NCBI GenBank assembly: GCA_035934315.1
Contig: DASYXZ010000090.1
Span: 2,742 to 66,741 of the forward strand
DNA from: Terriglobia bacterium
GTDB lineage: Bacteria; Acidobacteriota; Terriglobia; UBA7540
Direction of reading: 5' to 3'
DNA length: 64,000 bases
Shown here: positions 8,721-64,000 of the stretch, one piece after another
Layout: every line of letters begins with the position of its first letter
How positions within the stretch are numbered: position 1 is the first letter of the stretch
Program-made: the position numbers and the translations under genes
Notes under the pieces: generated by a model
Database searches by the model: none
Seen by the model: the letters and a program-made list of their open reading frames with translations, nothing else
Told to the model about the DNA's origin: nothing

Positions 8721-8769
8721 CCGCAAATTTTCACCTCGGACTTTGGACACCACAGTTCGGACTATGCAC

Positions 8770-21523: not shown

Positions 21524-21542
21524 ATCAGGAGCCAACCCAATC

Positions 21543-26996: not shown

Positions 26997-27047
26997 ATTA
27001 TAGGTGTCGAAATGGGCGTGTCAAGTGAAATTTGATATCTGAAATTC
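26997..27047 (-). promoter_or_regulatory. Near-consensus sigma70 promoter of receptor 2 with upstream TGATAT motif
   Basis: The minus sense reads GATATCAAATTTCAC-TTGACA-N16-TATAAT. On the plus strand these elements are tgtcaa 27019-27024, attata 26997-27002 and TGATAT 27033-27038. This places the transcription start about 75-80 nt upstream of ATG 26917. Confidence 0.55.
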
Positions 27048-36232: not shown

Positions 36233-36292
36233 CGGCTTCCTCCGCCTGGACACTTATGCACCCGCACTGATTAGCTAATATAAAAATCCTGA

Positions 36293-40027: not shown

Positions 40028-40083
40028 AGCTTATCGAAATGAAGATCGCATTGTCAAGCACAAAATGATATGTTAGATATCAT
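40028..40083 (-). promoter_or_regulatory. Putative promoter of receptor 3 with a perfect palindrome ATGATAT-N5-ATATCAT upstream of the -35
   Basis: The minus sense reads ATGATATCTAACATATCAT-TTTGTGC-TTGACA-N18-TAAGCT. On the plus strand these elements are tgtcaa 40052-40057 and the palindrome 40065-40083. The TGATAT-to--35 phasing is the same as at receptors 1 and 2. Confidence 0.45.
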
Positions 40084-41607: not shown

Positions 41608-41642
41608 TGTGATATGTTATATATTATTTTGCTCCCGTCAAG
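41608..41642. promoter_or_regulatory. TGATAT-type motif overlapping a candidate promoter in the divergent MFS / GH3 control region
   Basis: The plus strand reads TGTGATATGTTATATATTAT (41608-41627). The minus sense reads TTGACG-N16-TAACAT, with ATATCA falling at the -10 region of the MFS-directed promoter. On the plus strand, TAGAAT at about 41653-41658 could serve GH3. Confidence 0.35.
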
Positions 41643-45566: not shown

Positions 45567-45653
45567 TGTCTTCCTCCCTATAAATGCTCGATCCATTCTC
45601 AACGGCGGTGACGCAGGCCTGAGACTCGATTAGTCTTTTCGGAGAATCCCTCG

Positions 45654-46979: not shown

Positions 46980-47125
46980 AAGACCCCCTCGGGTGGAATG
47001 TTCACTTTGACTTTAGCAATGTCTCTTGAAAGATCCACGACCTCTCCTCAAGATGCTGGCAGGTCATGTTTCTCGCGCTCTTGAGACGATCAGAGCATCA
47101 CTCGAAGCGGTTAAGAAACAGGCAA

Positions 47126-48046
47126 TCAAACACCAGTGATTTGCCTGAGATATGCCCGATCCTGTCGAAGCGTATCTTCAGGATGCTGCAGGGGATGAGG
47201 ATAATTGCGCTCATCTTCAATTTCCAGCCACCCTGACCAGTCGCTTTTCAGCAACGGCGCGACCACACCTTTCAAATTCACATCCCCCTCTCCGAGCTTG
47301 GTATAAATGAGCTTGCCGGAATCTTCTAATTTCACATCCTTGAGATGGTAAATCCGAATCCTTCTGAAATGCTCAGCTGAAAAATCAGCCGGCTTGACCA
47401 ACCCAACGGCATGGCCCACGTCAAAGCACAGGCAGACTATCTCCGGGTCCGTGTCCCGCAGGAGAAGACTCATCGGCGTGGGGTCGCCCTCGAACTCGTG
47501 CCGGTGGTTGTGGTAGCAAAGTTCCACGCCCTCCGCTTTAACCGCATTGCCCAGCCGATTAAGGGCGTCAGTCCAAACGCCCATGAGATTGAGGTCCAAA
47601 TGACCTCCAAGCTGCGGGAAGCTTCCGGTACCGATAAGCTGGTAGCCTCCGCCCATCTCCGCAATGTAACCCGCAATCCTGCGCAGCGATTCGATCTCTC
47701 CAGGTATTTTGTCCTTGTCCAGCAGCCTCCCCGGACAATACAGCCCCGACAACTGTACATGGTGGGCTGCAAAATCTTTGCGGCATTCGGCGGCCTGGTT
47801 GAAACGGGCGCTCAAAGCCTTATAGTTGGTTTCGAACCCCTTGTATTTCAGGCGGGCCAGTGAGTCAGCAATCCGCAACAGGTCATCGTAGCTCTTGATG
47901 GGCATACCCCAAGCATTGGTTTGGGCGCCAATGTGCAGGCGCTCAGCGCGGCTCGGTGGAGTCGCCTTCAGCTTCCCAGTGGCAGCGAGAAGCGCCAGTG
48001 CGCCCGAACTCTTTTCTAGAAAGTCACGCCGATTGAACCTGATCAA
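47126..48046 (-). CDS. Sugar phosphate isomerase/epimerase (xylose-isomerase-like TIM barrel), Tat-exported
   Basis: I chose the TTG start at 48046, which is preceded by GGAGGG. This gives MIRFNRRDFLEKSSGALALLAATGKLKA (Tat). The TIM-barrel motifs are ELCYHNHRHEF, CFDVGHA and the C-terminal WLEIE. The ORF is open upstream to GTG 48127, but that part is occupied by a palindromic repeat. Confidence 0.8.
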   Translation of the reverse strand: MIRFNRRDFLEKSSGALALLAATGKLKATPPSRAERLHIGAQTNAWGMPIKSYDDLLRIADSLARLKYKGFETNYKALSARFNQAAECRKDFAAHHVQLSGLYCPGRLLDKDKIPGEIESLRRIAGYIAEMGGGYQLIGTGSFPQLGGHLDLNLMGVWTDALNRLGNAVKAEGVELCYHNHRHEFEGDPTPMSLLLRDTDPEIVCLCFDVGHAVGLVKPADFSAEHFRRIRIYHLKDVKLEDSGKLIYTKLGEGDVNLKGVVAPLLKSDWSGWLEIEDERNYPHPLQHPEDTLRQDRAYLRQITGV

Positions 48047-48096
48047 TAGTTGCCCTCCGCAAAGAGAATACAACCATAGCCACCGCAAACTCCAGG

Positions 48097-48180
48097 CAGG
48101 CTGATGAAAAACTGAGTAGCGCCGCACTTTAAGGCCCGGCGCTACGAAAAACCATAGTCATCGATTTTTTCATCAGCCTG
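48097..48180. repeat. Nested palindromic element bounded by 15-nt inverted termini CAGGCTGATGAAAAA / TTTTTCATCAGCCTG (element 1)
   Basis: The termini at 48097-48111 and 48166-48180 are perfect reverse complements. The inner 9-bp hairpin is GTAGCGCCG (48116-48124) / CGGCGCTAC (48137-48145). The element abuts the stop codon (48181-48183) of the Gfo/Idh/MocA copy 2 gene. Confidence 0.6.
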
Positions 48181-49389
48181 CTAAAGACTCTCGTCATCCC
48201 AGCCCACTGGGTTTCCGGTTCGCAATGAACGCTCGGAAGCCAGCGAGATGTGAATCGCGTCCTTTCCGACCTTTCCATTCAAAAGGGGAGGCTCTCCGGT
48301 CGTCATTGATCGTATAAACGCCAGGTGCTCACGATAAGTTTCAATGTCGAGATGCCCATCCGTGACCTGGCTTTTCCGCAACTCCTCCTCTTCGGGTCGA
48401 AGGTCAGGCACAGGAACTTTTTCTGATTTACCGCTGTAATAGTGGATGACGATCAACCCCTGGTGGCCATCCCGTTCCAGGTGCATTTCGGCTTTGGAGC
48501 CGAAGAAGCGCATGGTGGGCCCCTCCGGAGTCCCCGGTGTAAAGATGGTGAACCCAAAATTGCATTTGACCTCGTTGGAGAATTGAATCAGCAATCCCGC
48601 GTGGTCCACCGTTTCTCGGTCGCGGAAAATATTGTTGCCGCCCACAGCCTCGATGCGTTGCGGCTCGGCGTCAACCAGCCAATGAATCAGATCGAGCTCG
48701 TGGATACCATCCTCCAGCAAGGCACTCCCGCAGGTCAGTGTCAGAAACCGCCAGTTGGTTCTTTCGCCGGTCTTGGGATCGGTATATTTCCAGCTTCGTG
48801 GGTTCCAATCCCCCCGGAAAAGCGCAGCGAAGACGTACTCCACGCTGCCGATCTCGCCTTGGTGGATCAAGTCGTGCATCCGTTGGAATGAATTCGAATA
48901 CCGCCTCTGGAAACCCACCTGGAGAATATTTCCGTGCTCCTCCGCCGCTCGCATCATGCGGTCAGCGTCAGCCAGATGCGTGGCCAGGGGCTTCTCGGTC
49001 AGAACATGCTTGCCGGCTTCGAGAGCCGCGATGGTGACTTCCGCGTGTTTGTAGTTGGGCACCACCGCGACAACCGCGTCAAGCTCAGGGTGCTGCGCTA
49101 ACATTTGGCGATAGTCAGAGTATCCCACGGTGGCAGGCCCGCAGATTTTGAGCCCCTCTTTCAGGTTTTCGGGCGTGATGTCACATAAGGCAACGATTTC
49201 GACTTCGGGGATATAATCGTGCAGGATTTTCAAGTGAGCCCCGCGGGACCGGTATCCCGAACCCACAATACCGTAACGAAGCTTCCGTGAAGTCGATGCG
49301 AAGGACTGCGACGGAACAGCAAGGCTTGCGGCCCCTGCAACCGCGCCAAAGAGGAAATCGCGTCGGGCTATTTTTGACGAATCTGACAT
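48181..49389 (-). CDS. Gfo/Idh/MocA-family NAD(P)-dependent oxidoreductase, Tat-exported (copy 2)
   Basis: It begins MSDSSKIARRDFLFGAVAGAASLAVPSQSFA (Tat). It has YGIVGSGYRSRGAHL and GKHVLTEKPLAT. By eye it is roughly 60-65% identical to copy 1 across the whole length. The start ATG 49389 follows a G-run; the ORF is open to 49452, but those codons lie inside repeat element 2. Confidence 0.85.
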   Translation of the reverse strand: MSDSSKIARRDFLFGAVAGAASLAVPSQSFASTSRKLRYGIVGSGYRSRGAHLKILHDYIPEVEIVALCDITPENLKEGLKICGPATVGYSDYRQMLAQHPELDAVVAVVPNYKHAEVTIAALEAGKHVLTEKPLATHLADADRMMRAAEEHGNILQVGFQRRYSNSFQRMHDLIHQGEIGSVEYVFAALFRGDWNPRSWKYTDPKTGERTNWRFLTLTCGSALLEDGIHELDLIHWLVDAEPQRIEAVGGNNIFRDRETVDHAGLLIQFSNEVKCNFGFTIFTPGTPEGPTMRFFGSKAEMHLERDGHQGLIVIHYYSGKSEKVPVPDLRPEEEELRKSQVTDGHLDIETYREHLAFIRSMTTGEPPLLNGKVGKDAIHISLASERSLRTGNPVGWDDESL

Positions 49390-49428
49390 GTCACCCCCCC
49401 CGAAGTCTCCAGACCGATACTCGCATAT

Positions 49429-49561
49429 CAGGAGGCTGATGAAAAACTCCAACTGTTTGTCATTCCGCGTGCAGCGAGGAATCTATGTGGTTGATTTCAA
49501 ACCAGAGCGAGATTCCTCGCGTCGCTCCGTATGACAATTTGGGGCGTTTTTCATCAGCCTG
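49429..49561. repeat. Nested palindromic element with the same termini (..GGCTGATGAAAAAC / GTTTTTCATCAGCCTG) as element 1 but a different, longer internal hairpin (element 2)
   Basis: The left terminus is at 49434-49446 and the right terminus at 49547-49561. The inner inverted repeats are TGTCATTCCGCG..CGAGGAATC (49458-49483) and GATTCCTCGCG..CGTATGACA (49511-49536). Confidence 0.6.
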
Positions 49562-52970: not shown

Positions 52971-53026
52971 AGGCTACTAAGGCCGAATATCGAATGTCAA
53001 GCTAAAAATTGGTATCTTATATATTA
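52971..53026 (-). promoter_or_regulatory. Putative promoter of receptor 4 with upstream TGGTAT/ATAT motif
   Basis: The minus sense reads TAATATATAAGATACCAATTTTTAGC-TTGACA-N18-TAGCCT. On the plus strand these elements are tgtcaa 52995-53000 and the motif TTGGTATCTTATATATTA at 53009-53026. Confidence 0.4.
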
Positions 53027-54179: not shown

Positions 54180-55031
54180 TCAGAAAAGCGAAGGGCAGAT
54201 GGGCCGGGCGGTGGCCTCATCCGTGTGAACTATACAATCCGCATGCCCCTGCAGCAGTGTGGAAGGATAATCGGACCGGGGTTCGTCCAACACGGAAATG
54301 CGGAAGATGGCTCGGTGGCGCTCTCCACCGGCAAGAAACAAGCGGATGCGCCGCGACGCAAGGATATCGCGCATACCCAGGGTCACGGCCATCGGAGGGA
54401 TGAGATCGGAACTCCCTCCCGTGGCGTAGATACTTTGCACCACGATCGAGTCATCGCCCAGCACCACCACACGGGTGCGTGATTCGCGCAACTGCTGGAC
54501 TGAGATTCGATGCCACCGTGATATAAGCGGCTCGTTGAAGGCCACGTGTCCGTGATAACCGATTCCGCCGAAACATGTATCGATGCCACCGACTCTCTGA
54601 ATCTGCTCGCTGATCCCGTCCGGGTCGAAAGGAGTGGGAAAGTGAACATGGTCAGGCCTGGGTCTCAACTCCGGGTCCAGTTTTTCGAAGACTTGTCGCC
54701 GCATGAAACCCTCGAAGCTCAGAGGGTGCTCGATGGGCAAAGGCCGGCCCTCCCAGTCCAGGAATTCATCCATTTGAAAGGTGTGCGCCTCTTTCCAGCT
54801 TATACGTTCTCGATTGCATATTTCCACAAGCTTGAAATACTGGGCGACGGGACCCACCGGCAGGATCCAGCGCGTCGGCTGCTTCCGCTCGTTATTCGCG
54901 CAAATCTCATCAGCCATCGAGCGGGCAAAGTAACCCAGCATCGACGGAATATCAGGGGAAAGGCGGACGCCCAGTTTTGCGCGCTTTATCAAGCTCTCAA
55001 CGGGCAGGGCGAGTATTTCCTCCAGGCTCAT
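54180..55031 (-). CDS. Glucosamine-6-phosphate deaminase / 6-phosphogluconolactonase superfamily protein (NagB-like), substrate unknown
   Basis: 283 aa. The segments FQMDEFLD and CFGGIGYHGHVAFNEP are NagB-type motifs. It has no signal peptide. Confidence 0.7.
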   Translation of the reverse strand: MSLEEILALPVESLIKRAKLGVRLSPDIPSMLGYFARSMADEICANNERKQPTRWILPVGPVAQYFKLVEICNRERISWKEAHTFQMDEFLDWEGRPLPIEHPLSFEGFMRRQVFEKLDPELRPRPDHVHFPTPFDPDGISEQIQRVGGIDTCFGGIGYHGHVAFNEPLISRWHRISVQQLRESRTRVVVLGDDSIVVQSIYATGGSSDLIPPMAVTLGMRDILASRRIRLFLAGGERHRAIFRISVLDEPRSDYPSTLLQGHADCIVHTDEATARPICPSLF

Positions 55032-55064
55032 TTCCTTGTCCTTATGATCTGAACCGCGGCCATC

Positions 55065-55847
55065 TCACTGATTGAGATGAAGCAGCCTTGCTGCCGTTGC
55101 GCCATTGATTAGATCGAGTGTTTTTTTATCCAGGCCGAGCGGCTCGAAAATCTGGTCGTGAACTCGTTTCCCCGTCTCGAGTTCCTCCACCTTCAGGATG
55201 TCGGTCCCGAAGACGATTTTCTCCCAAGCGGCGGGCCAGAAGAAATGGTAGCGGTAGAAATCCGGTCCTTTGTTCGCCCGCCAGCCTCCCCAGCACGCCC
55301 CCGTAAGGTCTACGTAATAATTGGGATGGATACGGGCCATCATTGAGGCTTCCTCGTGCCATGGAGCTCCCAGATGCGCGCCGACGATGTTGATCCCGGG
55401 GAAACTGCGGGCGACGGCATCGAGCCGCGCCGGCGTCATTTTGGTTGAGTTCACGCGCAGCTCCCTGTCGGCGCTGGTCCGCATCACGATGCCAGTGTGA
55501 AACAGAACAGGAAGGTTGTACTTTTCCATCCGATCGTAGAGGGGAAAGTAACTCAAATCATCGTAAGGGGCCAAAGGGTTGATGATCTTGATTCCGCGGA
55601 AGCCCTGGCTGACATATTTGTCGATTACCTCCGGAGCATCGACGCCAAGGCGCACGTGCGCCAAACCGATGATACGCTCGGGGTATTGCTCGAAGGCCGC
55701 CCGGACCTCGTCGTTTGAAACATGGCCGAATTCTTCTCCCGCCGAACACAAGCAAATACGGTCAATGCCGACCTTCGGCAACTTCTCGATCAGGCGCGGC
55801 AGGAAGTTTTCCTGGCGGGCATAATGGGCATGAAAATCTATGACCAC
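55065..55847 (-). CDS. Amidohydrolase-2 family metal-dependent hydrolase (TIM barrel; lactonase/decarboxylase-type family)
   Basis: 260 aa. It has MVIDFHAHY (the HxH metal motif), PVLFHTG, VGAHLG and the C-terminal FGTD. The start GTG 55847 is preceded by GGAGGG. Confidence 0.75.
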   Translation of the reverse strand: MVIDFHAHYARQENFLPRLIEKLPKVGIDRICLCSAGEEFGHVSNDEVRAAFEQYPERIIGLAHVRLGVDAPEVIDKYVSQGFRGIKIINPLAPYDDLSYFPLYDRMEKYNLPVLFHTGIVMRTSADRELRVNSTKMTPARLDAVARSFPGINIVGAHLGAPWHEEASMMARIHPNYYVDLTGACWGGWRANKGPDFYRYHFFWPAAWEKIVFGTDILKVEELETGKRVHDQIFEPLGLDKKTLDLINGATAARLLHLNQ

Positions 55848-56134
55848 CCCTTTCCCTCCTCGATCAGGCCTGCGCGCTGCGGGCCGGGCTTGTTGCTAAA
55901 GCCATTCCGAACCGCGTCGATTTAAACCAGCCAGTCAACAGGGCGCGTTCCCTATGAATCCGCCCACCCGAATCTGCCTTGTTGCCTTGAATGCCTTTTC
56001 AATGTATCACGCCGAGACCCGCCTGCAAGCCATACTCACTTGCAAGGCCACAACGCGTTAGCCCCGACGCTTGCCACGACTACAAGCCTGCCCCGCTTGT
56101 GAAGTGCTTTGCGGCCAACCGTGTAAAGTAATTC

Positions 56135-56163
56135 TTGACTTTCACTAATATCTGATATACGTT
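56135..56163 (+). promoter_or_regulatory. Candidate promoter of the split UxaA-family operon, with the TGATAT motif inside the spacer/-10 region
   Basis: TTGACT lies at 56135-56140, followed by TTCACTAATATCTGATATACG. The motif ATATCTGATATAC occupies 56148-56160, and the -10 candidates are GATATA/TATACG. The site lies in a 396-nt divergent intergenic region. Confidence 0.35.
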
Positions 56164-56243
56164 TGTGCATGTCAAGACCTTTTTTAATTGATCGCGTGCG
56201 GGGAAATGCGATACACGAGATATTAAATTTCGCGGAGGATCTG

Positions 56244-56522
56244 ATGAGACACTTTCTGGTTCATGATGGCCGGGACAATGTAGGGGTGGTTGTAAGAGAC
56301 GTCAAATCGGGGGAAAACCTCGTGGGGGAAAGCACGGACAGCGGCGCGGCGTTGAAAGTGAAATCGCTCCAACCGATTCCGCTGGGACACAAGATCGCCC
56401 TTAAAGAATTCAAGGTGGGCGATACCGTTATCAAATATGGCGAGGACATCGGCAAAGTGGTGGGCAACATCCGTGCCGGCGAGCACGTTCACGTTCATAA
56501 TCTCAAAACAAAAAGGTGGTGA
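56244..56522 (+). CDS. UxaA-family small subunit (SAF domain); SuyA-like candidate
   Basis: 92 aa. The sequence is [26 protein letters not shown]...[46 protein letters not shown], which is the SAF/altronate-dehydratase N-terminal domain as a separate polypeptide. GGAGG lies 6 nt upstream of ATG 56244. Confidence 0.8.
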
Positions 56523-56527
56523 GAAAA

Positions 56528-57691
56528 ATGCAGAAACCAACATTCAAAGCTTTTCGGCGCGAAAACGGCCGCGTGGGAATTCGTAACCATGTCGTGATTC
56601 TCCCCGTGGATGACATTTCCAACGCCGCCACCGAGGCGGTGGCGCGTGTGATCCACGGCGCTCAGGCGCTTCCCCATGCCTACGGGCGGCTGCAGTTCGG
56701 CGAGGATCTTGAGTTGATGTTTCGAACGCTGATTGGGACCGGGGCGAATCCCAACGTGGCGGCGGCCATCGTCATCGGCATCGAGCCGGGGTGGACAGAC
56801 CGCGTGGTGCAGGGCATCGCCAAAACGGGCAAACCCGTGGCCGGATTTTCCATCGAGCGCAGCGGCGATCTCAAGACAATTGCTGAAGCTTCCCGCAAAG
56901 CCCTGGAATTCGTTCAGCAGGCGAGCGAGCGGCAACGCGAAGATTGCACCATGGACGAGCTGTATGTCTCCGTCAAGTGCGGCGAATCAGACACCACCAC
57001 CGGCCTCGCCTCATGCCCGACGGTTGGCAACGTTGTGGATCGCCTGGTGGACATCAACGGGACAACATCCTTCGGCGAAACATCTGAGTTGACCGGCGCC
57101 GAACATGTGGTGAAGAAGCGCGCCGCCACGCCCGCCATCGGCGAGCAGTTCATGAGGGTGTGGAGCGAATACAACGACTTCATTAATGAAAATAAAACGG
57201 ACGATCTGTCTGAATCCCAACCCACCAAGGGCAACATCCGTGGCGGCCTGACCACCATCGAGGAGAAAGCCTTCGGGAATATCCAGAAGATCGGCAAGCG
57301 CGCGAAGTATGTCGGGGTTCTCCAACCTGCTGAAGCGCCGTCCGGCAAAGGGCTGTGGTATATGGACACGTCCTCGGCGGCCGCGGAGGCTCTCACGTTG
57401 TGGGCCGCTTCGGGCGCCGTACTTCACCTGTTTCCCACCGGCCAGGGAAACATCATCGGAAATCCCATCATGCCGGTGATCAAGCTCTCGGGCAATCCGC
57501 TCACCTGCTCCACCATGAGCGAGCACATTGATCTCGACGTCTCGCAAATTTTGACTGGAGAAATGACGTTCGATCAGGCGGGCGACCGGCTGCTCGAACT
57601 GATGGTCCGCACAGCAAACGGGCGCATGACCGCCAGCGAAGCCCTGGGCCATCGCGAGTTCGTCATGACCAAGCTTTATCGCAGCGCGTGA
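56528..57691 (+). CDS. UxaA-family large (catalytic) subunit; SuyB-like candidate, alternatively a sugar-acid dehydratase
   Basis: 387 aa. The sequence contains [29 protein letters not shown]...[18 protein letters not shown]...[30 protein letters not shown], the altronate/galactarate dehydratase C-terminal domain. It starts 5 nt after the small-subunit stop. Confidence 0.8.
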
Positions 57692-57918
57692 GCTTTCGCG
57701 CCAGCATGTATAGTTGTCGTGGCCATTTGCCGCGTGCCTGCCCCGGTATGACCGCGCGGTTTTTCGAACTGTGTGATTGTGCGGGAGAAAAGAAACTGCT
57801 CATTCTTAGATTAGCTGAAAGCAAGGCAAGGGCGGTCAAGAATCGCTGCAAAAGCACCAGTGATTGATTTGAACACTTGGGTCAAGTTGCAGATCAATAT
57901 CGTTGCGAGGTATCGAAA

Positions 57919-59139
57919 ATGAAATCATCCAAGCCGGATCGTCGGGAATTCCTGCAGGGTCTCGGGACTGCCTCGATTTCGGCGGCAGCTTTTTTGCTGC
58001 CTGCTTCATTATCGGGCCGTGGAATTGATGAGGACGGTATTCTAGCGGGGCGACCGATGGTGCGGTACCCGGAGAAGACTGATCTGATTCTGCTGACCTC
58101 CCGCCCGCCTCAACTGGAAACGCCAATGCGCTATTTGGGCAGCGTGATCACTCCCAACGAGGCCTTCTACGTCAGATATCACATTCCGCCACCGACATCG
58201 GTGGACCTGAATACGTGGCGCCTTAAAATCGCGGGGAACGTCCGCGAACCGATCTCTTTTTCGATGGATGACTTGAGAGGCAAGTTCAGCTCGCAACGGG
58301 TCATCGCCGTGAACCAATGCTCGGGAAACAGCCGTGGCCGATTTTCTCCGCGTGTCTTTGGAGGACAGTGGGGAGACGGGGCGATGGGCAACGCGGCCTG
58401 GACGGGCGCCCCGCTGCGGGATATTCTCGAGCGGGCGGGGCTCAAGGATGGGGCGCTTCAAGTTACCTTCAACGGTCTGGATGATCCCGTCCTCCCCACC
58501 GCGCCGGACTTCGTCAAGAGCCTGACTGTGGACCATATTATGAATGAGCCCGATATTCTTGTGGCTTACGAAATGAACGACAAACCCCTTCCCATGCTGA
58601 ATGGGTTTCCGGCGCGCCTTGTCGTTCCAGGATGGTACGCGACCTATTGGGTTAAGAACCTGGCGGAGATTACGGTGCTCGATCATGAGTTCATGGGTTT
58701 CTGGATGCATAAGGCCTATCGGATCCCTGATACCCCTGGCGCCTGCGTTCCGCCGGGGACCCAGCCGTTGCGGACCATTCCCATCAACCGCATGGACGTG
58801 CGCTCTTTCATCATTACGCCAAGCGAGGGCGATCGCGTCAAAGCAAAGCGGCCAGCGGTCATCAAGGGTATAGTATTTGATGGAGGATCTGGCATTAGCG
58901 ACGTTGTGATTTCGACGGACGCGGGGAACAGTTGGCGCAGCTCAAGGCTCGGGCAGGATATGGGTAATTATTCCTTTCGAGAATGGTCCTTTCAGTGGAC
59001 GCCCCCCAGCCAAGGAAGCTATCGCCTGATGGCGCGTGCGACCAACCGAATCGGCCAATCGCAGCCGCTTGAGCCGCTCTGGAACCCGGCGGGGTTTATG
59101 CGGAATGTGGTGGAACATGTGGATGTTCGTGCGGACTGA
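57919..59139 (+). CDS. Sulfite-oxidase-family molybdopterin oxidoreductase, Tat-exported (SorA/SorT-like sulfite dehydrogenase)
   Basis: It begins MKSSKPDRREFLQGLGTASISAAAFLL (Tat). The Moco-Cys motif is AVNQCSGNSRG. It also has FPARLVVPGWYATYWVKNL and a C-terminal dimerisation-type domain. Confidence 0.8.
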   Translation: MKSSKPDRREFLQGLGTASISAAAFLLPASLSGRGIDEDGILAGRPMVRYPEKTDLILLTSRPPQLETPMRYLGSVITPNEAFYVRYHIPPPTSVDLNTWRLKIAGNVREPISFSMDDLRGKFSSQRVIAVNQCSGNSRGRFSPRVFGGQWGDGAMGNAAWTGAPLRDILERAGLKDGALQVTFNGLDDPVLPTAPDFVKSLTVDHIMNEPDILVAYEMNDKPLPMLNGFPARLVVPGWYATYWVKNLAEITVLDHEFMGFWMHKAYRIPDTPGACVPPGTQPLRTIPINRMDVRSFIITPSEGDRVKAKRPAVIKGIVFDGGSGISDVVISTDAGNSWRSSRLGQDMGNYSFREWSFQWTPPSQGSYRLMARATNRIGQSQPLEPLWNPAGFMRNVVEHVDVRAD

Positions 59140-59169
59140 GGCCTCCAACTGCAGGAAGGGGTGGTAAAA

Positions 59170-59523
59170 ATGAAAGCTGGACTCACAATGGCAGCGATTA
59201 TTTTGACTTGTCTGGCGATGTTTGCGGCGGAGCTATCTCCGAAGAAAGTCATCGAGCTCCCGGCCGATAATTCCATGGCGGAGCTAAAACCCGGGCCGGG
59301 GCTCAAGACAGTTCAAGCAGACTGCGGCGTCTGTCACTCCACGGACTACGTTGTCCGGCAACCGCACAAAAGCGCGAAGGATTGGCAGGCGGAAGTCACG
59401 AGGATGATAACGGCCTTCGGAGCGCCTATTCCGAAGTCGGATGAGGGAATCATTGCCAAGTATTTGGCCACTGCCTATGGGCCACAACCCCCGCAAAAGG
59501 ATCATCCGGGTCCGGTGCGGTGA
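59170..59523 (+). CDS. Small monohaem c-type cytochrome (SorB/SorU-like electron acceptor)
   Basis: It has the signal MKAGLTMAAIILTCLAMFAA, a single CxxCH motif (CGVCHS) and the segment KDWQAEVTRMITAFGAPI. It starts 30 nt after the molybdoenzyme stop, with GAAGGGGTGG upstream. Confidence 0.7.
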   Translation: MKAGLTMAAIILTCLAMFAAELSPKKVIELPADNSMAELKPGPGLKTVQADCGVCHSTDYVVRQPHKSAKDWQAEVTRMITAFGAPIPKSDEGIIAKYLATAYGPQPPQKDHPGPVR

Positions 59524-59799
59524 TTTTCGATTGGTCGAATAATTGTTTTGTCGGGCAGCGCGGCCTGTGGCCGCAACCCAAGTGAGATTCTCGGTGGACT
59601 CTGTGCTTCAAAGATTCCACCACAGAAATCACACAGCGTCACAGTGAACTCTGTGTTCAGTCTTTTCCTGCCACCGAGACTACGAAGTCCATGCGGTTCT
59701 ATCTTCCCGCCACAGAAGAAAAAATCTTCACGGCAGGAGAAGTAGCTGATTCATAGTGTTACAGAATGGTTTTAGGGAGTAAGGAATCCCTGTAGGAAT

Positions 59800-61077
59800 G
59801 TGAGAGAGCTCCGATTCCAGTACGGTGAGGGTCATTTATCTGTACGCATCCCAGCCGCTTTGACATGCGAAACGCTGAGCCCGAAGCTCATGTCCCCGGC
59901 GGCCAACTCTGTTGCCGCTGTGCGCGATGCGTTGCGCGATCCGATCGGCACACCCCCCTTACAGAAACTAGTTCACCCGGGGGAGCGAGTAGCGGTGCTG
60001 GTCAATGACATCACGCGGCTCGTTCATAGTGAGATTTTTCTTCCTGTTCTCATCGAAGAATTAAATGGTTCGGGTATCCCGGATCGCGACATCTTTATCG
60101 TATTCGCGCTCGGCATTCATCGTCGTCAGTCTGCCGAAGAACAGCATCGTATCGTGGGTGAAGAAATTTCCCGCCGTATTGCTCTTTATGACCATGATTG
60201 CCATGACCGGGACAATTTGGTCAGTGTGGGTCAAACAAGCCGGGGCAACGAGGTTTGGATCAACCGCCGCGTTTGGGAAGCTGACCGAGTCATCCTGACG
60301 GGGGAAATTATTCATCATCTAATTGCCGGTTACAGTGGTGGACGCAAAAGCCTCGTGCCAGGGGTGGCGGGAGCGGAGACCACTACATTTAATCATCGAT
60401 TTATTCTGGACCCGAAATGCCAGGCCGGGGTTCTGGATGGAAATCCTGCTCACGAGGATCTTTTGGAGGCCTGCCGGATGTTTGGTCCGGATTTCCTGCT
60501 GAACGTTGTTTTGAATCAAGAGGGAAAAATTGTGCGGGCGGTGGCTGGCCATTATGATTTGGCCCATCGGGAAGGCTGTAAAACCGTTGACCAGATGTAC
60601 CGATACTCTGTCGAAGAACCTTTCGATGTGGTTCTCGCCAGCGCGGGAGGCTTTCCCTTTGACATCGACCTCCGGCAGGCGCACAAAGGGATGGAGAACG
60701 CCACAAGAGCTTTGAAGCCAGGTGGGGTGCTCGTCTATTTTGCCGAATGCCGGGAAGGAGCCGGCCACCGGGCAATTGAAGAATGGGTTAAGAGATTTTC
60801 GACCTCGACCGAAATGGAACGGGAATTGCGCTCAAAGTTCGTCGTGGGGGGGCATAAAGCCTATTGGCTCGCGCGGATGGGCGAGCAGTTGCGAATACTT
60901 TTGGTGTCCGGACTTCCGGAAGAGTTTGTCCGCCGCTGCCATCATCACCCCGCGCCGGATCCCCAAGAGACTGTTGAGCGTGAACTCGCAAATCTGCCAG
61001 TCGGGGTGCGAATCGCCCATATCCCGTATGCCGGTTTTACGCTGCCGGTCGGGGAGCGAAAGTCCGTCGCAGAATAA
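59800..61077 (+). CDS. LarA-family (DUF2088) nickel-pincer-cofactor-dependent 2-hydroxyacid racemase/epimerase homologue
   Basis: 425 aa with a GTG start. Counterparts of the LarA catalytic and cofactor residues appear to be present: FALGIHRRQ (His), GEIIHHLIAGYSGGRKSLVPGV (His plus the NPN-tethering Lys) and TFNHRF (Ni-ligand His). The N-terminal layout is typical (DPIGTPPL..PGERVAVLVNDITR). Confidence 0.8.
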   Translation: MRELRFQYGEGHLSVRIPAALTCETLSPKLMSPAANSVAAVRDALRDPIGTPPLQKLVHPGERVAVLVNDITRLVHSEIFLPVLIEELNGSGIPDRDIFIVFALGIHRRQSAEEQHRIVGEEISRRIALYDHDCHDRDNLVSVGQTSRGNEVWINRRVWEADRVILTGEIIHHLIAGYSGGRKSLVPGVAGAETTTFNHRFILDPKCQAGVLDGNPAHEDLLEACRMFGPDFLLNVVLNQEGKIVRAVAGHYDLAHREGCKTVDQMYRYSVEEPFDVVLASAGGFPFDIDLRQAHKGMENATRALKPGGVLVYFAECREGAGHRAIEEWVKRFSTSTEMERELRSKFVVGGHKAYWLARMGEQLRILLVSGLPEEFVRRCHHHPAPDPQETVERELANLPVGVRIAHIPYAGFTLPVGERKSVAE

Positions 61078-61094
61078 AATCATTTTGGATATCG

Positions 61095-61127
61095 GCCTGC
61101 CTGTCGGCAGGCAGGTTTCCATTTTTG
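61095..61127 (+). terminator. Rho-independent terminator after the LarA-like gene
   Basis: The stem is CCTGCCTG (61095-61102) / CAGGCAGG (61107-61114) with loop TCGG. The T-rich tract TTTCCATTTTTGTG follows. Confidence 0.7.
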
Positions 61128-61193
61128 TGCTGGAGAGAGAGCAACGAAGCGCGATGTCCGGCCCACATTCCAAACGTAATTCGAGGCAAATTT

Positions 61194-62621
61194 ATGAAGA
61201 CTCATCCGCTTTATCTGAACGGCCAGTGGGTGGATAGCACAACACGGCTCGCTATTGTCAACCCGGCCACCGGCGAGCCATTCGCCGAGGTTTCGACGGT
61301 AGACCGAGCCCGGGTAGCGGAGGCGGTGCGGGATGCCCATCAAGCCTTTGAGAACTGGCGTCAGCTCACGGGCAAAGCGCGTGGCGAATACCTGAAAAAG
61401 ATCGCGGATGAACTGGAGCGGCGCGGCGAGGAGATCGCTTGCACCATCACCAGGGAAAACGGCAAACCGCTGCCGCAAAGCCGGGGTGAAGTTGCCATGT
61501 CGGTGGATCACTTGCGCTGGTTCGCGGAAGAAGCGCGCCGCGTGTACGGCCGGATCGTCCCGCCCCAGGCCGGCTCCAAACGGCACCTTGTTATTAAAAC
61601 GCCCATGGGAGTGGTTGCCGCGATCAGTCCGTGGAACTTCCCGCTGGTGCTCGCATTGCGCAAGGTGGCGCCGGCGCTGGCCGCGGGCTGCACGGTGATT
61701 CTGAAACCCGCGAGCGCAACGCCCCTCAGCGCCGTGACGCTGGCCGAATGCGTGGAAGTCGCCAAGTTGCCCCAGGGAGTTTTTCAGCTTGTGCTCGGCC
61801 GCTCCGCCGACATTGCCCAAGAATTTCTGGAAAATCCCCTTTGTCGCAAGATTACGTTCACCGGGTCCACTGAGGTGGGTCGAAAGCTGATCGAGGGTGC
61901 AGCGGCCGGGATCAAACCGCTATCCCTGGAATTGGGCGGCCATGCCCCCGTGCTGGTTTTTGACGACGCCGACCTTGGCCCGGCAGTCGAAGGCGCCATG
62001 ACGATCAAATTCCGCAATACGGGCCAATCCTGCATTGCCGCCAACCGCATCTACGTCCACCGTTCGATCTACGAGAAGTTCCTTGAACTCTTCACTCAGA
62101 AGACGGGCGCCTTGAAAGTGGGCGACGGGATGGAGGACGGGGTGGAGATTGGCCCGCTCATCAATGAAGAGGGAGTCGCCAAGGCTGTCGCGCACATTGA
62201 GGACGCCGTTCGGCGCGGCGCCCGGTTGCTGTGCGGTGGAAAGCGCGTTGAGCGCAAAGGCTGGTTCCTTGAACCGACGGTCCTCGCAGATGTGCCCCCA
62301 GACGCGGTGTGTATGTCCGAGGAAACGTTTGCCCCGGTTGCACCCATTTGTCCCTTCAACGCTGATTCCGAAGCAATCAATTGGGCCAACAGCTCGCTTT
62401 TCGGCCTTAGCGCCTACGCTTTTACGCGCGACCTCAGCCGGACGTGGCGCCTGATGGAATCTCTGGAGGCCGGAACGATCGGGATTAATGACAGTGTTCC
62501 CTCCACCAGCCAATGCCCCTTCGGCGGGATCAAACAGAGCGGTTGGGGACGTGAACTTGGAATCGAGGGCCTGGATGCTTTCGTCGAGACCAAGCACATT
62601 TCTCTGGGAGTTAACATCTGA
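61194..62621 (+). CDS. NAD(P)-dependent aldehyde dehydrogenase, succinate-semialdehyde dehydrogenase (GabD)-like
   Basis: It has MKTHPLYLNGQWVDS, AISPWNFP, FTGSTEVGRKL, the catalytic Glu segment LSLELGGHAP, the catalytic Cys segment NTGQSCIAANR and PFGGIKQSGWGRE. GAGG lies upstream of ATG 61194. Confidence 0.9.
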   Translation: MKTHPLYLNGQWVDSTTRLAIVNPATGEPFAEVSTVDRARVAEAVRDAHQAFENWRQLTGKARGEYLKKIADELERRGEEIACTITRENGKPLPQSRGEVAMSVDHLRWFAEEARRVYGRIVPPQAGSKRHLVIKTPMGVVAAISPWNFPLVLALRKVAPALAAGCTVILKPASATPLSAVTLAECVEVAKLPQGVFQLVLGRSADIAQEFLENPLCRKITFTGSTEVGRKLIEGAAAGIKPLSLELGGHAPVLVFDDADLGPAVEGAMTIKFRNTGQSCIAANRIYVHRSIYEKFLELFTQKTGALKVGDGMEDGVEIGPLINEEGVAKAVAHIEDAVRRGARLLCGGKRVERKGWFLEPTVLADVPPDAVCMSEETFAPVAPICPFNADSEAINWANSSLFGLSAYAFTRDLSRTWRLMESLEAGTIGINDSVPSTSQCPFGGIKQSGWGRELGIEGLDAFVETKHISLGVNI

Positions 62622-62923
62622 CTTTGAAGTAGATCCAAACATTGCCTGCCGCCTCGGAGAAAGTACGAAGAAGGGTCATCGATCACCTAAAAAAATGAAA
62701 TTGGATTCAGCCCGGCAAAAGGTCTCACAAAACAGTGGGGCTCCCCGCCTTAAGCAGGTCTGGAAAAGTTCTGAAAAAAGTTCCAGGGCCACCATGTCTT
62801 AAGGCGACCCTGGAAATCGGGCCAGCGCATCCCACCTCTGGAAGGAGAGGCAATCTGCTTGCGGAGCTGGCATGGGCGTTCGATCATGGGCCCGTTTTGA
62901 TGAATATAATGTTCCGGGATGAG

Positions 62924-62945
62924 ATTTGATATATAGTACTGATAC
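62924..62945 (+). promoter_or_regulatory. TGATAT-type AT-rich motif upstream of the GntR gene (candidate operator)
   Basis: The sequence ATTTGATATATAGTACTGATAC lies about 55-75 nt upstream of the TTG start at 62998. Confidence 0.3.
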
Positions 62946-62997
62946 GCGCAGCTAAAGAGGTTGAGGATTACAGCCTGCGAGTGTCAGGAGGGAAGAA

Positions 62998-63705
62998 TTG
63001 AAACTCAGAATACCAGAGAATCTGACTCAGCAGGCCTACCAATCCATCCGTGATGAGATCATCAAAGGCAAACTCGATGGTCGGCAGCATTTGACTGAAG
63101 GTTTCTTTGCCAGTCGCTTCGGAATCAGCAAGTCCCCGATTCGTGAGGCTCTGAACCGGCTCGAGGCGGAGGGCTTGATTACCATCATTCCGCGGCGCGG
63201 CGCATTCGTGTCTGAATTTTCGATTCACGATATCGAAGAAATCTACGAATTGCGTGAGGTTTTGGAGGCGCTCGTGGTGCGCAACGCGGTACTCAATTTG
63301 AAAACGCTTGCGGGTATGCGAGAATGCGTGCGTGCTGCGAAGGCTTACTTGCGCAAGAACGACATATCGAACTATATCCGCGAGGACTCCGCGTTTCATA
63401 CCAGGCTGGCCATGGCAAGCAGCAACTCGCGCTTGGCAAAGATTCTTGAGAACATGCAATATCAAATGCTGATCTTGCGAGGCAAGACGTTCGAGTTGAC
63501 GAGTCACACTTCAATAAAGCAGCACTCTCAAATCCTCAGCGTCCTCGAGAAAGGACAAAAAGATGTCGCGGCAAAGTTGATGGTTCGGCATATCCGGACC
63601 GTCCGAAGAAGACTGATCGATCACTTAAAAAGATTGGAAATTGAAAAGGCGGCTCAGCAAAAAACCTCTGCGAACAGTGAGACTGCCAGGCTCAGGAAGG
63701 GATAG
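62998..63705 (+). CDS. GntR-family transcriptional regulator, FadR/FCD subfamily
   Basis: It has the wHTH segment FASRFGISKSPIREALNRLEAEGLITIIPRRGAFV and an all-helical FCD-type C-terminal domain (EIYELREVLEAL...FHTRLAMASSN). The TTG start is preceded by GGAGG at 7-nt spacing. Confidence 0.9.
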   Translation: MKLRIPENLTQQAYQSIRDEIIKGKLDGRQHLTEGFFASRFGISKSPIREALNRLEAEGLITIIPRRGAFVSEFSIHDIEEIYELREVLEALVVRNAVLNLKTLAGMRECVRAAKAYLRKNDISNYIREDSAFHTRLAMASSNSRLAKILENMQYQMLILRGKTFELTSHTSIKQHSQILSVLEKGQKDVAAKLMVRHIRTVRRRLIDHLKRLEIEKAAQQKTSANSETARLRKG

Positions 63706-63745
63706 ATAGCCAACCCGGCTACCATCGCCGTGTGTGTTCTCCATC

Positions 63746-64000
63746 TCAGACGAAATGGATGTGCATGGTGCGCGCCAGCCGGCGCAACTTTGCGGCATGA
63801 TGTCCCGCGAACATCGCCACATGATGTGGCATGCCTTGATGACAGAGTTCCTCAAACCATTCCCGCGGGTCTTGCTGTTCAAGCCGCGCCAGCGCGTTAG
63901 TACCCATCAGGTGGCGTTTGGGCCTGAGCGTCCGGCCTTCGCGAGCCGTCAGATAGTAGCTTCCGTCGCAGCGCCAAAATCGTAAGATGGTGATGGCCAT
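63746..64000 (-). CDS. Hypothetical ORF running into the right window edge (may extend further)
   Basis: It encodes 84 codons ending ..CHQGMPHHVAMFAGHHAAKLRRLARTMHIHFV*. I recognised no family. A same-size ORF exists on the opposite strand, so the coding status is uncertain. Confidence 0.2.
   Translation of the reverse strand: MAITILRFWRCDGSYYLTAREGRTLRPKRHLMGTNALARLEQQDPREWFEELCHQGMPHHVAMFAGHHAAKLRRLARTMHIHFV

Follow-up and report, generated by a model that had tools for sequence, protein, structure and literature searches.

A complete gene set for the conversion of sulfolactate, a plant-derived sulfonate, to pyruvate and sulfate is encoded in a soil acidobacterium of the class Terriglobia, within the 64-kb stretch of DNA analyzed here (the window). 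With a probability of roughly 60%, the cluster forms the lower half of a complete sulfoquinovose mineralization pathway in which a LarA homolog replaces SlcC/ComC. Comparison of related loci favors this homolog, on balance, as a nickel-pincer sulfolactate racemase.

The sulfolactate gene cluster

The seven genes from suyA to the GntR/FCD gene described in the first-pass annotation were all located on the + strand with the following neighbors.

54180–55031, − strand: NagB/Pgl-family protein, glucosamine-6-phosphate deaminase-like (283 aa; TIGR00502)
55848–56243, no strand: divergent intergenic region upstream of suyA, candidate promoter/operator with an inverted repeat
56244–56522, + strand: suyA, SAF small subunit (92 aa; PF08666)
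56528–57691, + strand: suyB, UxaA-family large subunit (387 aa; PF04295 and PF20629)
57919–59139, + strand: sorA, Tat-exported molybdoenzyme (406 aa; PF00174 and PF03404)
59161–59523, + strand: sorB, monohaem cytochrome c (CGVCH motif)
59800–61077, + strand: LarA homolog (425 aa; PF09861 and PF21113)
61094–61117, + strand: hairpin and T-run between the LarA homolog and ALDH genes (10-bp G+C-rich stem)
61194–62621, + strand: GabD-like ALDH (475 aa; PF00171)
62998–63705, + strand: GntR/FCD regulator (235 aa; PF00392 and PF07729)
63746–64000, − strand: 3' end of a FucI/SqvD-like isomerase gene that continues past the window (NF048012)

Independent gene calls on an identical public contig gave the same boundaries for all seven genes but sorB, which was started nine bases later (59170, 117 aa). 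An alternative GTG start at 56516 would extend SuyB to 391 aa.

SuyB shares 63–68% identity with its counterparts in the published Cupriavidus cluster (hpsRNOUPsuyAB) and in the suy loci of Paracoccus, Methylobacterium and Rhodococcus, and 63–82% with SuyB-clade proteins overall. Identity to any other UxaA-family protein, split enzymes included, is at most 40% (next best match 39.6%); E. coli UxaA and GarD reach 27–29%, and the GarD model scores 155 bits against a cut-off of 730. In a neighbor-joining tree, the large subunit lies inside a tight SuyB clade, apart from UxaA, GarD and the remaining split UxaA enzymes. SuyA is 53–54% identical to its counterparts in the Cupriavidus hpsRNOUPsuyAB and Paracoccus versutus loci, and suyA was always directly upstream of suyB in the loci compared. 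By these sequence measures the enzyme is clearly assigned as a SuyAB ortholog. The earlier assignment as SuyAB-like is borne out by the clade placement and by the identity to known SuyB proteins.

The molybdoenzyme and its cytochrome are close to the structurally characterized SorAB of Starkeya novella, in agreement with their initial assignment. SorA scores 434 bits (E 4e-129) against S. novella SorA (2blf_A), from which Cys104, Arg109, Tyr236 and the RYH motif are conserved, and 552 bits against NF052245 (SorA; cut-off 600). It carries a twin-arginine motif, SKPDRREFLQG. SorB scores 86.8 bits against NF052246 (SorB; cut-off 93) and matches 2blf_B with E 5e-14. In P. versutus and M. oryzae, suyAB is also flanked by sorAB-like genes. 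A sulfite exporter of the TauE or SuyZ type was not found in the window, although SorAB is predicted to be periplasmic.

Among NCBIfam models, the ALDH matches the SSADH subfamily best, at 559 bits (cut-off 646). In agreement with the first suggestion, its ortholog (61–63% identity) is the ALDH encoded immediately before suyAB-comC-slcC in five acidobacterial genomes. It is proposed to be a sulfolactaldehyde dehydrogenase that forms (S)-sulfolactate from (S)-sulfolactaldehyde. A probable regulator of the gene set is the GntR/FCD protein, whose orthologs (46–93% identity) occur in 15 of 47 LarAH-anchored loci, several of them directly after the LarAH-ALDH pair. The NagB/Pgl-family protein scores 97 bits against TIGR00502 (cut-off 237) and has orthologs (60–82% identity) recurring in LarAH and SuyB loci (L029, L093, L115, L116, L118 and L124). 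It is a possible accessory pathway gene of uncertain membership.

Within the candidate promoter/operator region upstream of suyA, an imperfect inverted repeat (56124–56148 and 56162–56186) flanks the palindrome ATATCTGATAT (56148–56158). Motifs like ATATCTGATAT recur between other genes of the window, and the palindrome is therefore probably not specific to the suy operon. The hairpin at 61094–61117 may act as a terminator or attenuator, on weak evidence, since terminator-like sites around it are no more frequent than in shuffled sequence.

Sulfoglycolysis genes beyond the window

Genes for a probable source of sulfolactaldehyde lie just past the window end, outside the view of the first-pass annotation. 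The identical public contig, L137, is 100% identical to positions 54904–64000 and extends 3.5 kb further, where the isomerase gene is followed by genes for a Cgl0159-type class-I aldolase (PF22649) and a PfkA-family kinase (PF00365/PRK14072). The complete isomerase has 470 aa and a single NCBIfam match, sulfoquinovose isomerase SftI (NF048012; 171 bits, cut-off 700); it is proposed to be a sulfoquinovose isomerase. Known enzymes of the sulfo-EMP2 route include SqvD and the PfkA-type SqiK, and the SqvD-like isomerase, PfkA-family kinase and class-I-type aldolase form a probable sulfoquinovose glycolysis set. Sulfoglycolysis genes share a contig with the cluster in L137, L088, L092 and L121.

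A LarA homolog as the proposed replacement of SlcC/ComC

The LarA homolog falls below every NCBIfam LarAH cut-off. Its best matches there are LarAH6 malate racemase (448 bits, cut-off 500) and LarAH10 (448 bits, cut-off 540), and its best PDB match is Mar2, also a malate racemase (6d6z; E 8e-89). Retention of the cofactor-binding His/Lys/His residues had been noted before, and in the alignment all catalytic and NPN residues correspond to those of L. plantarum LarA: D70, R73, H107, H173, K183, H199, Q293 and K296 equal D72, R75, H108, H174, K184, H200, Q295 and K298. Their strict conservation in more than 20 homologs (58–100% identity) indicates purifying selection for catalysis. Sulfolactate is the sulfonate analog of malate. 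The GHK motif, whose Lys has been proposed as the residue that binds malate's second anionic group, is retained, and the motif does not distinguish malate from sulfolactate.

Sulfoglycolysis-linked sulfolactaldehyde dehydrogenases form (S)-sulfolactate, and the substrate of SuyAB is (R)-sulfolactate. The acidobacterial locus L012 has the order aldolase-MFS-PFK-SqvD-like-GntR-ALDH-suyA-suyB-comC-slcC, its PFK, isomerase, ALDH and SuyB being 41–72% identical to their counterparts in this organism. L012 and related acidobacterial loci share the kinase, isomerase, ALDH and suyAB genes with the present cluster, but comC and slcC follow suyAB there, whereas sorAB and then the LarA homolog follow it here; slcC and comC are absent from the window. 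Among 80 suyB loci from species-representative genomes, SlcC and/or ComC was found in 51, a LarA homolog in three and both in none. LarAH-anchored loci with suyB gave the same picture (SlcC or ComC in 0 of 13).

LarA homologs of three unrelated lineages, 31–35% identical to each other, adjoin suyAB: the window type (L001, L089, L092–L095, L103, L104, L121 and others), the L040 type and the LarAH5 type (L018, L021, L138 and L139). Neither slcC nor comC is present in the suyAB-adjacent loci of any of the three. The original idea of a LarA-type racemase gains comparative support from this pattern, with racemization as the presumed function. For LarAH group 5, COG2721 'altronate dehydratase' is 100% associated (Table S1, Desguin 2020). 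In one LarAH5-type locus without suyAB (L140), a split Ldh_2 (ComC-like) gene lies close by.

Of the 47 window-type LarAH loci, only 13 have suyAB on the stretch fetched; among the nine with 5 kb or more on each side, the count is four. Among the 24 LarAH loci of at least 8 kb, 15 have suyB, PFK, aldolase or an SqvD-like gene. The other nine have no recognizable sulfo-pathway gene; in them the LarA homolog is accompanied by an ALDH resembling lactaldehyde dehydrogenase, together with Gfo/Idh/MocA, TIM-barrel, KduI, MR_MLE or IlvD/DHDPS genes.

Alternative readings and proposed pathway

The nearest matches and the GHK/MAR signature would suit an ordinary malate (or tartrate) racemase, placed near the sulfonate genes by coincidence or for a reason unconnected with them, with sulfolactate inverted by dehydrogenases encoded elsewhere or with no need for inversion; slcC or comC could lie in the part of the genome outside view. 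This is unlikely, given the scores below the LarAH6, LarAH5 and LarAH10 cut-offs, the three LarA lineages at suyAB in loci without slcC/comC, and the position after suyAB that comC-slcC occupies in related Acidobacteria. The cluster has no malate-metabolizing gene (malic enzyme or C4-dicarboxylate transporter), and Mar1, the characterized enzyme of the suyAB-linked LarAH5 group, racemizes malate poorly (KM 55 mM), its authors doubting malate as the native substrate (Desguin 2020). The homolog might instead act on another 2-hydroxy acid, produced by the neighboring ALDH as part of a general sugar pathway (lactate from 6-deoxy-sugar lactaldehyde, glycerate or a sugar acid), suyAB being one context among several. 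In most related loci the ALDH after the LarA gene does best match lactaldehyde dehydrogenase (495 bits, cut-off 650), several loci without suyAB hold genes of the kinds listed above, including IlvD/Edd with a DHDPS aldolase, and nine of the 24 long loci lack a sulfo-pathway marker. The ALDH type does not discriminate, because sulfolactaldehyde is the sulfonated analog of lactaldehyde, and the combination of IlvD/Edd with an aldolase is likewise seen in the sulfo-ED pathway. Since the conserved GHK Lys favors a second anionic group over lactate or glycerate, and 15 of the 24 long loci do carry a marker, this reading too has a low probability.

It is very improbable that the LarA homolog is non-functional as a racemase here, a relic or a protein with another role, with NPN not made or poisoned by sulfite. 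Sulfite, which forms an adduct with NPN, inhibits the one LarA tested, and larB, larC and larE were not found in the 64-kb window or any fetched flank; however, the inhibition is reversible, LarA homologs commonly lack linked lar biosynthesis genes (Table S1, Desguin 2020), and the catalytic and cofactor residues are strictly kept. Least credible is a cluster for uronate or aldarate catabolism, with a sugar-acid dehydratase and a molybdoenzyme other than sulfite dehydrogenase. Pfam and NCBI naming goes no further than 'UxaA family hydrolase' or domains of galactarate/altronate dehydratase, and glycan-utilization genes abound in the window, but the large subunit is 63–82% identical to the SuyB clade against 27–40% for UxaA, GarD and other split UxaA proteins, and SorA keeps the active-site residues of the characterized enzyme.

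In the favored sulfoquinovose pathway, the isomerase, kinase and aldolase would, by family membership, turn sulfoquinovose into DHAP and (S)-sulfolactaldehyde, which the GabD-like ALDH may oxidize to (S)-sulfolactate. Comparative genomics suggests that the LarA homolog then converts this to (R)-sulfolactate by inversion at C2. Its cofactor, a covalently tethered nickel-pincer nucleotide, would accept a hydride and return it, with sulfopyruvate as a transient enzyme-bound intermediate. As strong orthology predicts, SuyAB would cleave (R)-sulfolactate to pyruvate and sulfite, and periplasmic SorAB would oxidize sulfite to sulfate, passing electrons to a c-type cytochrome. Canonical pathways use the SlcC/ComC two-dehydrogenase 'racemase', which the LarA homolog would replace here. 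No description of a nickel-pincer sulfolactate racemase was found in the searchable literature, and the LarA step would be the new part of the pathway.

Lyase and sulfite dehydrogenase genes

The seven plus-strand genes proposed in the first-pass annotation were all found where expected, with the family evidence from Pfam and NCBIfam listed below. Gene calls on L137, a public contig identical to the end of the window, agree with six of the seven boundaries; there SorB starts at 59170 and has 117 aa. The large lyase subunit and the LarA homologue are each 100% identical to Terriglobia MAG proteins.

Genes of the cluster
56244-56522, plus strand: suyA, SAF small subunit, 92 aa, PF08666
56528-57691, plus strand: suyB, UxaA-family large subunit, 387 aa, PF04295 and PF20629
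57919-59139, plus strand: sorA, molybdoenzyme, 406 aa; best match NF052245 (SorA), 552 bits (cut-off 600); twin-arginine motif SKPDRREFLQG
59161-59523, plus strand: sorB, cytochrome c, 120 aa; CGVCH; NF052246 (SorB), 86.8 bits (cut-off 93)
59800-61077, plus strand: LarA homologue, 425 aa, PF09861 and PF21113
61194-62621, plus strand: aldehyde dehydrogenase (ALDH), 475 aa; SSADH subfamily, 559 bits (cut-off 646)
62998-63705, plus strand: GntR/FCD regulator, 235 aa, PF00392 and PF07729

The suyA gene lies directly upstream of suyB, a few bases apart, and the SAF and UxaA-type parts are two separate polypeptides, as in SuyAB, whose subunits have about 9 and 42 kDa. A tblastn search of 72,556 plasmids with the large subunit gave 13 matches at 63–69% identity, all others being at 39.6% or less. 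It is 63–68% identical to SuyB of Cupriavidus (hpsRNOUPsuyAB), Paracoccus, Methylobacterium and Rhodococcus. Within the high-identity group, the C. pinatubonensis locus reads LacI-hpsN-hpsO-MFS-hpsP-suyA-suyB and is the published hpsRNOUPsuyAB cluster, while that of P. versutus (pTAV3) reads GntR-suyA-suyB-'sulfate exporter' with a sulfite oxidase pair nearby. The Rhodococcus, Methylobacterium and P. seriniphilus loci hold ALDH genes, pairs of a hydroxyacid dehydrogenase and an Ldh-family enzyme, TauE/SuyZ exporters and molybdoenzymes. In a neighbor-joining tree without bootstrap, built from a comparison set that excludes the P. pantotrophus and C. salexigens sequences themselves, the window protein falls within the SuyB clade (63–82% identity). 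A long branch separates this clade from three other split UxaA enzymes (35–40%) and from E. coli UxaA and GarD (27–29%); the GarD model scores 155 bits on the large subunit against a cut-off of 730. The proposed SuyAB-like lyase was thus upheld by comparison with UxaA, GarD and other split enzymes, and its assignment from sequence as a SuyAB orthologue is strongly supported. Paracoccus and Cupriavidus SuyAB are two-subunit sulfolactate sulfo-lyases of the Fe(II) type, and the P. pantotrophus enzyme was purified by Rein et al. (2005).

The loci of these two genera resemble the window in the SAF small subunit and a large subunit of about 387 aa, and P. versutus also in a sorAB-like pair close by on the same replicon. 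They differ in obtaining (R)-sulfolactate directly, via HpsN or sulfopyruvate reduction, and in having SuyZ or TauE exporters, whereas tblastn found neither SuyZ and TauE nor HpsN, HpsO and HpsP in the window.

The SorAB-like sulfite dehydrogenase of the first-pass annotation gained support from structure-linked matches. The SUOX-fold molybdenum subunit aligns with Starkeya novella SorA (2blf_A) over 360 residues with 434 bits, and the molybdenum ligand Cys104, Arg109 and Tyr236 of the substrate pocket and the RYH motif are kept; the cytochrome matches SorB (2blf_B) with E 5e-14 and has the CxxCH motif. Both narrowly miss the NCBIfam equivalog cut-offs, with SorA and SorB as best matches by a wide margin. 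As in the S. novella heterodimer (PDB 2blf), a Tat-exported molybdenum subunit, here with an RREFL motif, is encoded together with a monohaem cytochrome c. The S. novella context is thiosulfate oxidation, whereas the window pair sits within an organosulfonate operon. SorAB is periplasmic, yet no TauE or SuyZ exporter was detected in the window.

Predicted sulfoglycolysis genes and other loci

The predicted GabD-like ALDH was confirmed as a match to the SSADH subfamily, and its orthologue, at 61–63% identity, lies upstream of suyAB in five acidobacterial loci (L012-L014, L016 and L017). Like a sulfolactaldehyde (SLA) dehydrogenase, it is encoded together with predicted sulfoglycolysis genes and suyAB. 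Separation of SLA from succinate-semialdehyde specificity by sequence was attempted; the sequence does not discriminate between them.

L137, a Logan contig, is 100% identical to window positions 54904-64000 and extends 3.5 kb further. Past the regulator, on the opposite strand, it encodes a FucI/SqvD-like protein, a Cgl0159-type class-I aldolase and a PfkA-family kinase, all adjacent and none reaching a sulfo-specific curated cut-off; the 3' end of the isomerase gene fills the final 255 bases of the window. The only NCBIfam match of the 470-aa FucI/SqvD-like protein is the sulfoquinovose isomerase SftI (NF048012), at 171 bits against a cut-off of 700. The kinase (PF00365) matches PRK14072 with 421 bits, a family model named for PPi-dependent PFK. 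A contig of 90% identity, L088, repeats this gene order and then has an MFS transporter gene. A YihQ-type sulfoquinovosidase was not among the genes seen.

In sulfo-EMP2 the isomerase is SqvD, a FucI homologue, and the kinase is SqiK (PF00365). The presence of both families on L137 suggests that the window holds the lower half of a sulfoquinovose pathway. Sulfo-EMP2 and hybrid sulfo-EMP pathways (SqvD, SqiK, SqiA or YihT, SLA dehydrogenase) share these two families and the oxidation of SLA to sulfolactate. They differ in the aldolase, which here is of the Cgl0159 type (PF22649) and not PF01116 or PF01791, in the isomerase, which here is distant from SftI/SqvD, and in lacking the fusion to full desulfonation and sulfite oxidation that is predicted for this one organism. 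As a whole, the cluster is best read as a unit for sulfolactate desulfonation and sulfite oxidation, joined to a probable hybrid sulfo-EMP pathway.

The Cgl0159 class-I aldolase type has not previously been named in sulfoglycolysis and may represent a third type of sulfofructose-1-phosphate aldolase, as yet undescribed. Members occur on L137 (10335-11381, minus strand), L088 (7394-8563, minus), L092 (5673-6719, plus) and L002 (8557-9600, plus), are consistently paired with a PfkA-family kinase beside suyAB and bear a weak likeness to archaeal class I FBP aldolase.

No regulatory RNA was found by Rfam, either in the whole window at gathering thresholds or in 55700-64000 at E up to 1, including Moco, nickel and other riboswitches. 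Terminator-like sites were no commoner than in shuffled sequence; promoter-like sites were about twice as common (8 versus a mean of 3.8, sd 2.0), and no gene start was linked to any of them. At 61094-61117, in the gap separating the LarA homologue from the ALDH gene, a 10-bp G+C-rich hairpin precedes a T-run. This element, which the scan statistics do not place above chance, could be an internal terminator or attenuator and so divide the cluster into two transcripts.

The palindrome ATATCTGATAT upstream of suyA was considered as a dedicated GntR operator and rejected, because it recurs in many unrelated intergenic regions and so gives no evidence for a dedicated regulon. Similar motifs are enriched in the window: at up to two mismatches there are 19 matches where 4.5 are expected, a count that none of 100 shuffles attained. 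They may serve this acidobacterium as a general promoter or regulator element. Sites that are mostly intergenic and upstream of operons lie at 16093-16112, 27028-27045, 40070-40080, 41612-41622, 53012-53022, 56148-56158 and 62922-62932.

Further loci in the window
5835-8156, minus strand: xylose-isomerase-like TIM barrel and FG-GAP repeat protein
8178-10380, minus strand: GMC-family flavoprotein oxidoreductase and gluconate 2-dehydrogenase subunit-3-like protein
16568-22925, plus strand: separate sugar locus with DeoR, two cupin-type glucose-6-phosphate-isomerase-family genes (PF06560), ROK kinase, 585-aa protein without Pfam match, sugar transporter
28833-30347, plus strand: sulfatase (PF00884 and SGSH_C)
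32105-33490, minus strand: radical-SAM/SPASM protein with C-terminal SEC-C motif
33518-36253, minus strand: GH2 glycosidase
44313-49452, minus strand: xylose-isomerase-like TIM barrel, FG-GAP repeat protein and two Gfo/Idh/MocA oxidoreductases with N-terminal twin-arginine motifs
54180-55031, minus strand: NagB/6-phosphogluconolactonase family

The two TIM-barrel/FG-GAP modules, of which that at 5835-8156 has no Gfo/Idh/MocA gene, resemble oxidoreductive glycoside-cleavage systems, and the same gene types recur beside LarA homologues in loci L114 and L135. One of the oxidoreductases, Gfo2 (48181-49452), matches the GH188 NAD-dependent sulfoquinovosidases 8qc2 and 8qc3 weakly, though over its full length (E 7e-21); since the match is weak and the sulfonate-binding loop cannot be aligned, a GH188 reading stays a lead. 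The NagB-family protein is 60–82% identical to proteins in loci with LarA homologues or SuyB (L029, L093, L115, L116, L118 and L124). Because sulfoquinovose resembles a sugar 6-phosphate, a role as sulfosugar isomerase or sulfogluconolactonase is conceivable for this protein. The radical-SAM/SPASM protein looks like an anaerobic sulfatase-maturating enzyme, and its region, with the sulfatase and GH2 genes, is a probable sulfated-glycan utilization locus. The GMC pair, alongside which lie a GH79C-like protein (10423-11898) and a TonB-dependent receptor (12341-16024), is predicted to be another periplasmic sugar-oxidation module. The lowest G+C content of the window (0.50) is at 16-18 kb.

Known and candidate inversion genes across suyB loci

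SLA dehydrogenases linked to sulfoglycolysis give (S)-sulfolactate, and SuyAB takes the (R)-enantiomer, yielding pyruvate and sulfite. The only described route of inversion is the dehydrogenase pair SlcC and ComC, which with SuyAB makes up the sulfolactate pathway of Chromohalobacter salexigens (Denger and Cook, 2010). By tblastn with two SlcC and two ComC queries, neither SlcC (D-2-hydroxyacid-dehydrogenase family) nor ComC (Ldh_2 family) was found in the 64-kb window or on L137. In a SuyB-anchored scan, with one genome per species, 80 loci were taken and each was searched for LarA, SlcC and ComC homologues.

Known and candidate inversion genes in 80 suyB loci
SlcC and ComC: 33/80
ComC only: 12/80
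SlcC-like only: 6/80
LarA homologue: 3/80
None of LarA, SlcC and ComC: 26/80

SlcC, ComC or both were thus present in 51 loci, and a LarA homologue was found alongside either of them in none of the 80. A metagenome scan anchored on the LarA homologue gave 47 loci, 13 with suyAB and none with slcC or comC. Recurrent orders were suyA-suyB-LarA homologue, suyA-suyB-PFK-LarA homologue-ALDH and suyA-suyB-PFK-aldolase-LarA homologue-ALDH-GntR. Among the comparison loci, P0229 was judged from its gene list, not from DNA.

The five acidobacterial loci named above are sister loci with the dehydrogenase pair, in the order ALDH-suyA-suyB-comC-slcC. L012 reads sugar transporter, DeoC aldolase, MFS, PFK, SqvD-like, GntR, ALDH, suyA, suyB, comC, slcC, and its products are similar to those of the window organism (PFK 41%, isomerase 43%, ALDH 63%, SuyB 72% identity). 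This likeness points to the same pathway with another inversion module, comC-slcC following suyB in L012 and the LarA homologue being present here. More widely, C. salexigens and the equivalent suyAB-comC-slcC loci of Alpha- and Gammaproteobacteria, Rhodococcus and other Acidobacteria share with the window the SuyAB orthologues and the need for (S) to (R) conversion, and many carry an SLA-type ALDH, a GntR regulator and a sulfite dehydrogenase. They use two NAD(P)-dependent dehydrogenases with free sulfopyruvate as the intermediate, whereas the window and L137 lack both genes and have one LarA-superfamily protein instead.

The LarA homologue as a predicted racemase

The cofactor-binding His/Lys/His residues claimed for the LarA homologue are present in an alignment with Lactiplantibacillus plantarum LarA. 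The protein has both Lar_N and LarA_C domains, and D70, R73, H107, H173, K183, H199, Q293 and K296 align with catalytic and nickel-pincer-nucleotide (NPN)-binding residues (window/L. plantarum: H107/H108, H173/H174, K183/K184, H199/H200, R73/R75, Q293/Q295 and K296/K298). The residues for NPN, catalysis and the substrate carboxylate are therefore kept. In LarA two His residues are catalytic, a Lys tethers NPN, a His is a nickel ligand, an Arg contacts the NPN phosphate and a Gln and a Lys contact the substrate carboxylate.

G351-H352-K353 form the GHK motif of malate racemases, in which an H/Q-K pair takes the place of LarA W358/T359 and the Lys is proposed to bind the second carboxylate. Because sulfolactate has a sulfonate where malate has its distal carboxylate, the motif fits, but it cannot tell one substrate from the other. 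In the loop, the second catalytic His is followed by L-I in the window protein, by Q-F or Q-I in other suyAB-linked types and by Y-K in Mar2, the LarAH6 member from Thermoanaerobacterium thermosaccharolyticum (PDB 6d6z). The NCBIfam scores for LarAH6 (448 bits, cut-off 500) and LarAH10 (448, cut-off 540) tie, followed by LarAH5 (382, cut-off 462); having missed the LarAH5 and LarAH6 cut-offs, the protein is not filed in either malate racemase family.

The suyAB-adjacent LarA homologues form three groups, 31–35% identical to each other: the window type, the L040 type of Acidobacteria and a Desulfobacterales type. The last exceeds the NCBIfam 'LarAH5 malate racemase' cut-off (539 and 555 bits versus 462).

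Desulfobacterales LarAH5-suyAB loci, behind a sigma54 activator
L018: 4606-11161
L021: 8251-11161
L138: 2644-5440
L139: 8001-17170

Two of these loci have the order sigma54 regulator-LarA homologue-suyA-suyB, followed in one by a TTT transporter and in the other (L139) by a beta-hydroxyacid dehydrogenase, a TRAP transporter and an aldehyde:ferredoxin oxidoreductase. Taken together, the L139 genes resemble an anaerobic pathway leading from DHPS to sulfolactate. The split transketolase of L018 recalls sulfo-TK. At another LarAH5-type locus suyAB is missing, and a split Ldh_2 gene lies close by. The neighborhood of Mar1, the characterized LarAH5 member from Desulfitobacterium hafniense, was taken from the published Table S1 of Desguin et al. 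(2020), where COG2721 'altronate dehydratase' is 100% associated with LarAH group 5; a homologue search with a LarAH5-type protein gave at least 120 matches, and those listed were all metagenomic at 63% identity or above.

SuyAB and SorAB are of known kinds, and the new element would be the predicted nickel-pincer sulfolactate racemase. This prediction draws on the non-orthologous displacement of SlcC/ComC, the three LarA lineages, the fitting motif and the published, unexplained gene association. One main rival is that the LarA homologue is a true malate racemase. It shares with Mar1 and Mar2 the fold, the catalytic His pair, the Lys tether, the His nickel ligand and the GHK motif; it is 38% identical to Mar2 and 31% to LarAH5-type proteins, and its context is sulfonate catabolism and not malate metabolism. 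The gene context argues against malate as the physiological substrate. For Mar1 itself, Desguin et al. (2020) give a KM of 55 mM for L-malate and note that malate may not be its native substrate.

The other main rival is action on a different product of the neighboring ALDH. The window-type family is not exclusive to suyAB: among 24 loci of at least 8 kb, suyB is present in 9, and at least one of suyB, PFK, aldolase and SqvD-like genes in 15. In the nine marker-free loci the LarA gene is paired with a lactaldehyde-dehydrogenase-like ALDH, and Gfo/Idh/MocA, TIM-barrel, NagB-like, KduI, MR_MLE or IlvD and DHDPS genes are also held there. Against these alternatives, the whole chain, sulfolactate racemase included, is given a probability of roughly 0.6. 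The broader proposal, that at least three LarA lineages (the window type, the L040 type and LarAH5/Mar1) natively racemize (S)- and (R)-sulfolactate in a widespread, overlooked reaction, stands at about even odds.

Neither the 64-kb window nor the fetched flanks gave a larB, larC or larE gene. At C4 of NPN, sulfite adds covalently, and L. plantarum LarA binds sulfite more tightly than lactate; this sits uneasily with an enzyme placed one step before a lyase that releases sulfite. Poisoning of NPN by sulfite might explain the co-encoded sulfite dehydrogenase. The searchable literature, which omits many subscription papers, contains neither nickel-pincer and sulfolactate together nor a 'sulfolactate racemase', and sulfolactate is unmentioned in the supplementary files of Desguin et al. 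(2020) and in the 2024 follow-up. Two 2026 reviews of sulfoquinovose catabolism mention no racemase or LarA, and papers of 2024–2025 still cite only SlcC/ComC.

Few organosulfur fluxes on Earth are larger than those of sulfoquinovose and its C3 products, and handedness decides which organisms can finish their degradation. If the prediction holds, a one-protein, redox-neutral nickel racemase would be a second solution besides the SlcC/ComC pair, and a sulfonate would join the substrate range of the nickel-pincer cofactor. The position of the enzyme one step before sulfite release would then call for an NPN site that tolerates sulfite, or else mean that product feedback is built in. A large group of LarA homologues whose sole characterized member handles malate poorly would gain a physiological role, and the 'altronate dehydratase' association, published yet never explained, would gain meaning. 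For anaerobic Desulfobacterales, such enzymes would bridge a stereochemical gap not addressed so far, from (S)-DHPS or (S)-sulfolactate to the (R)-specific SuyAB. They would stand in for SlcC/ComC in aerobic soil Acidobacteria, making these abundant bacteria complete mineralizers of plant sulfolipid headgroups, with a predicted nickel requirement for that mineralization.
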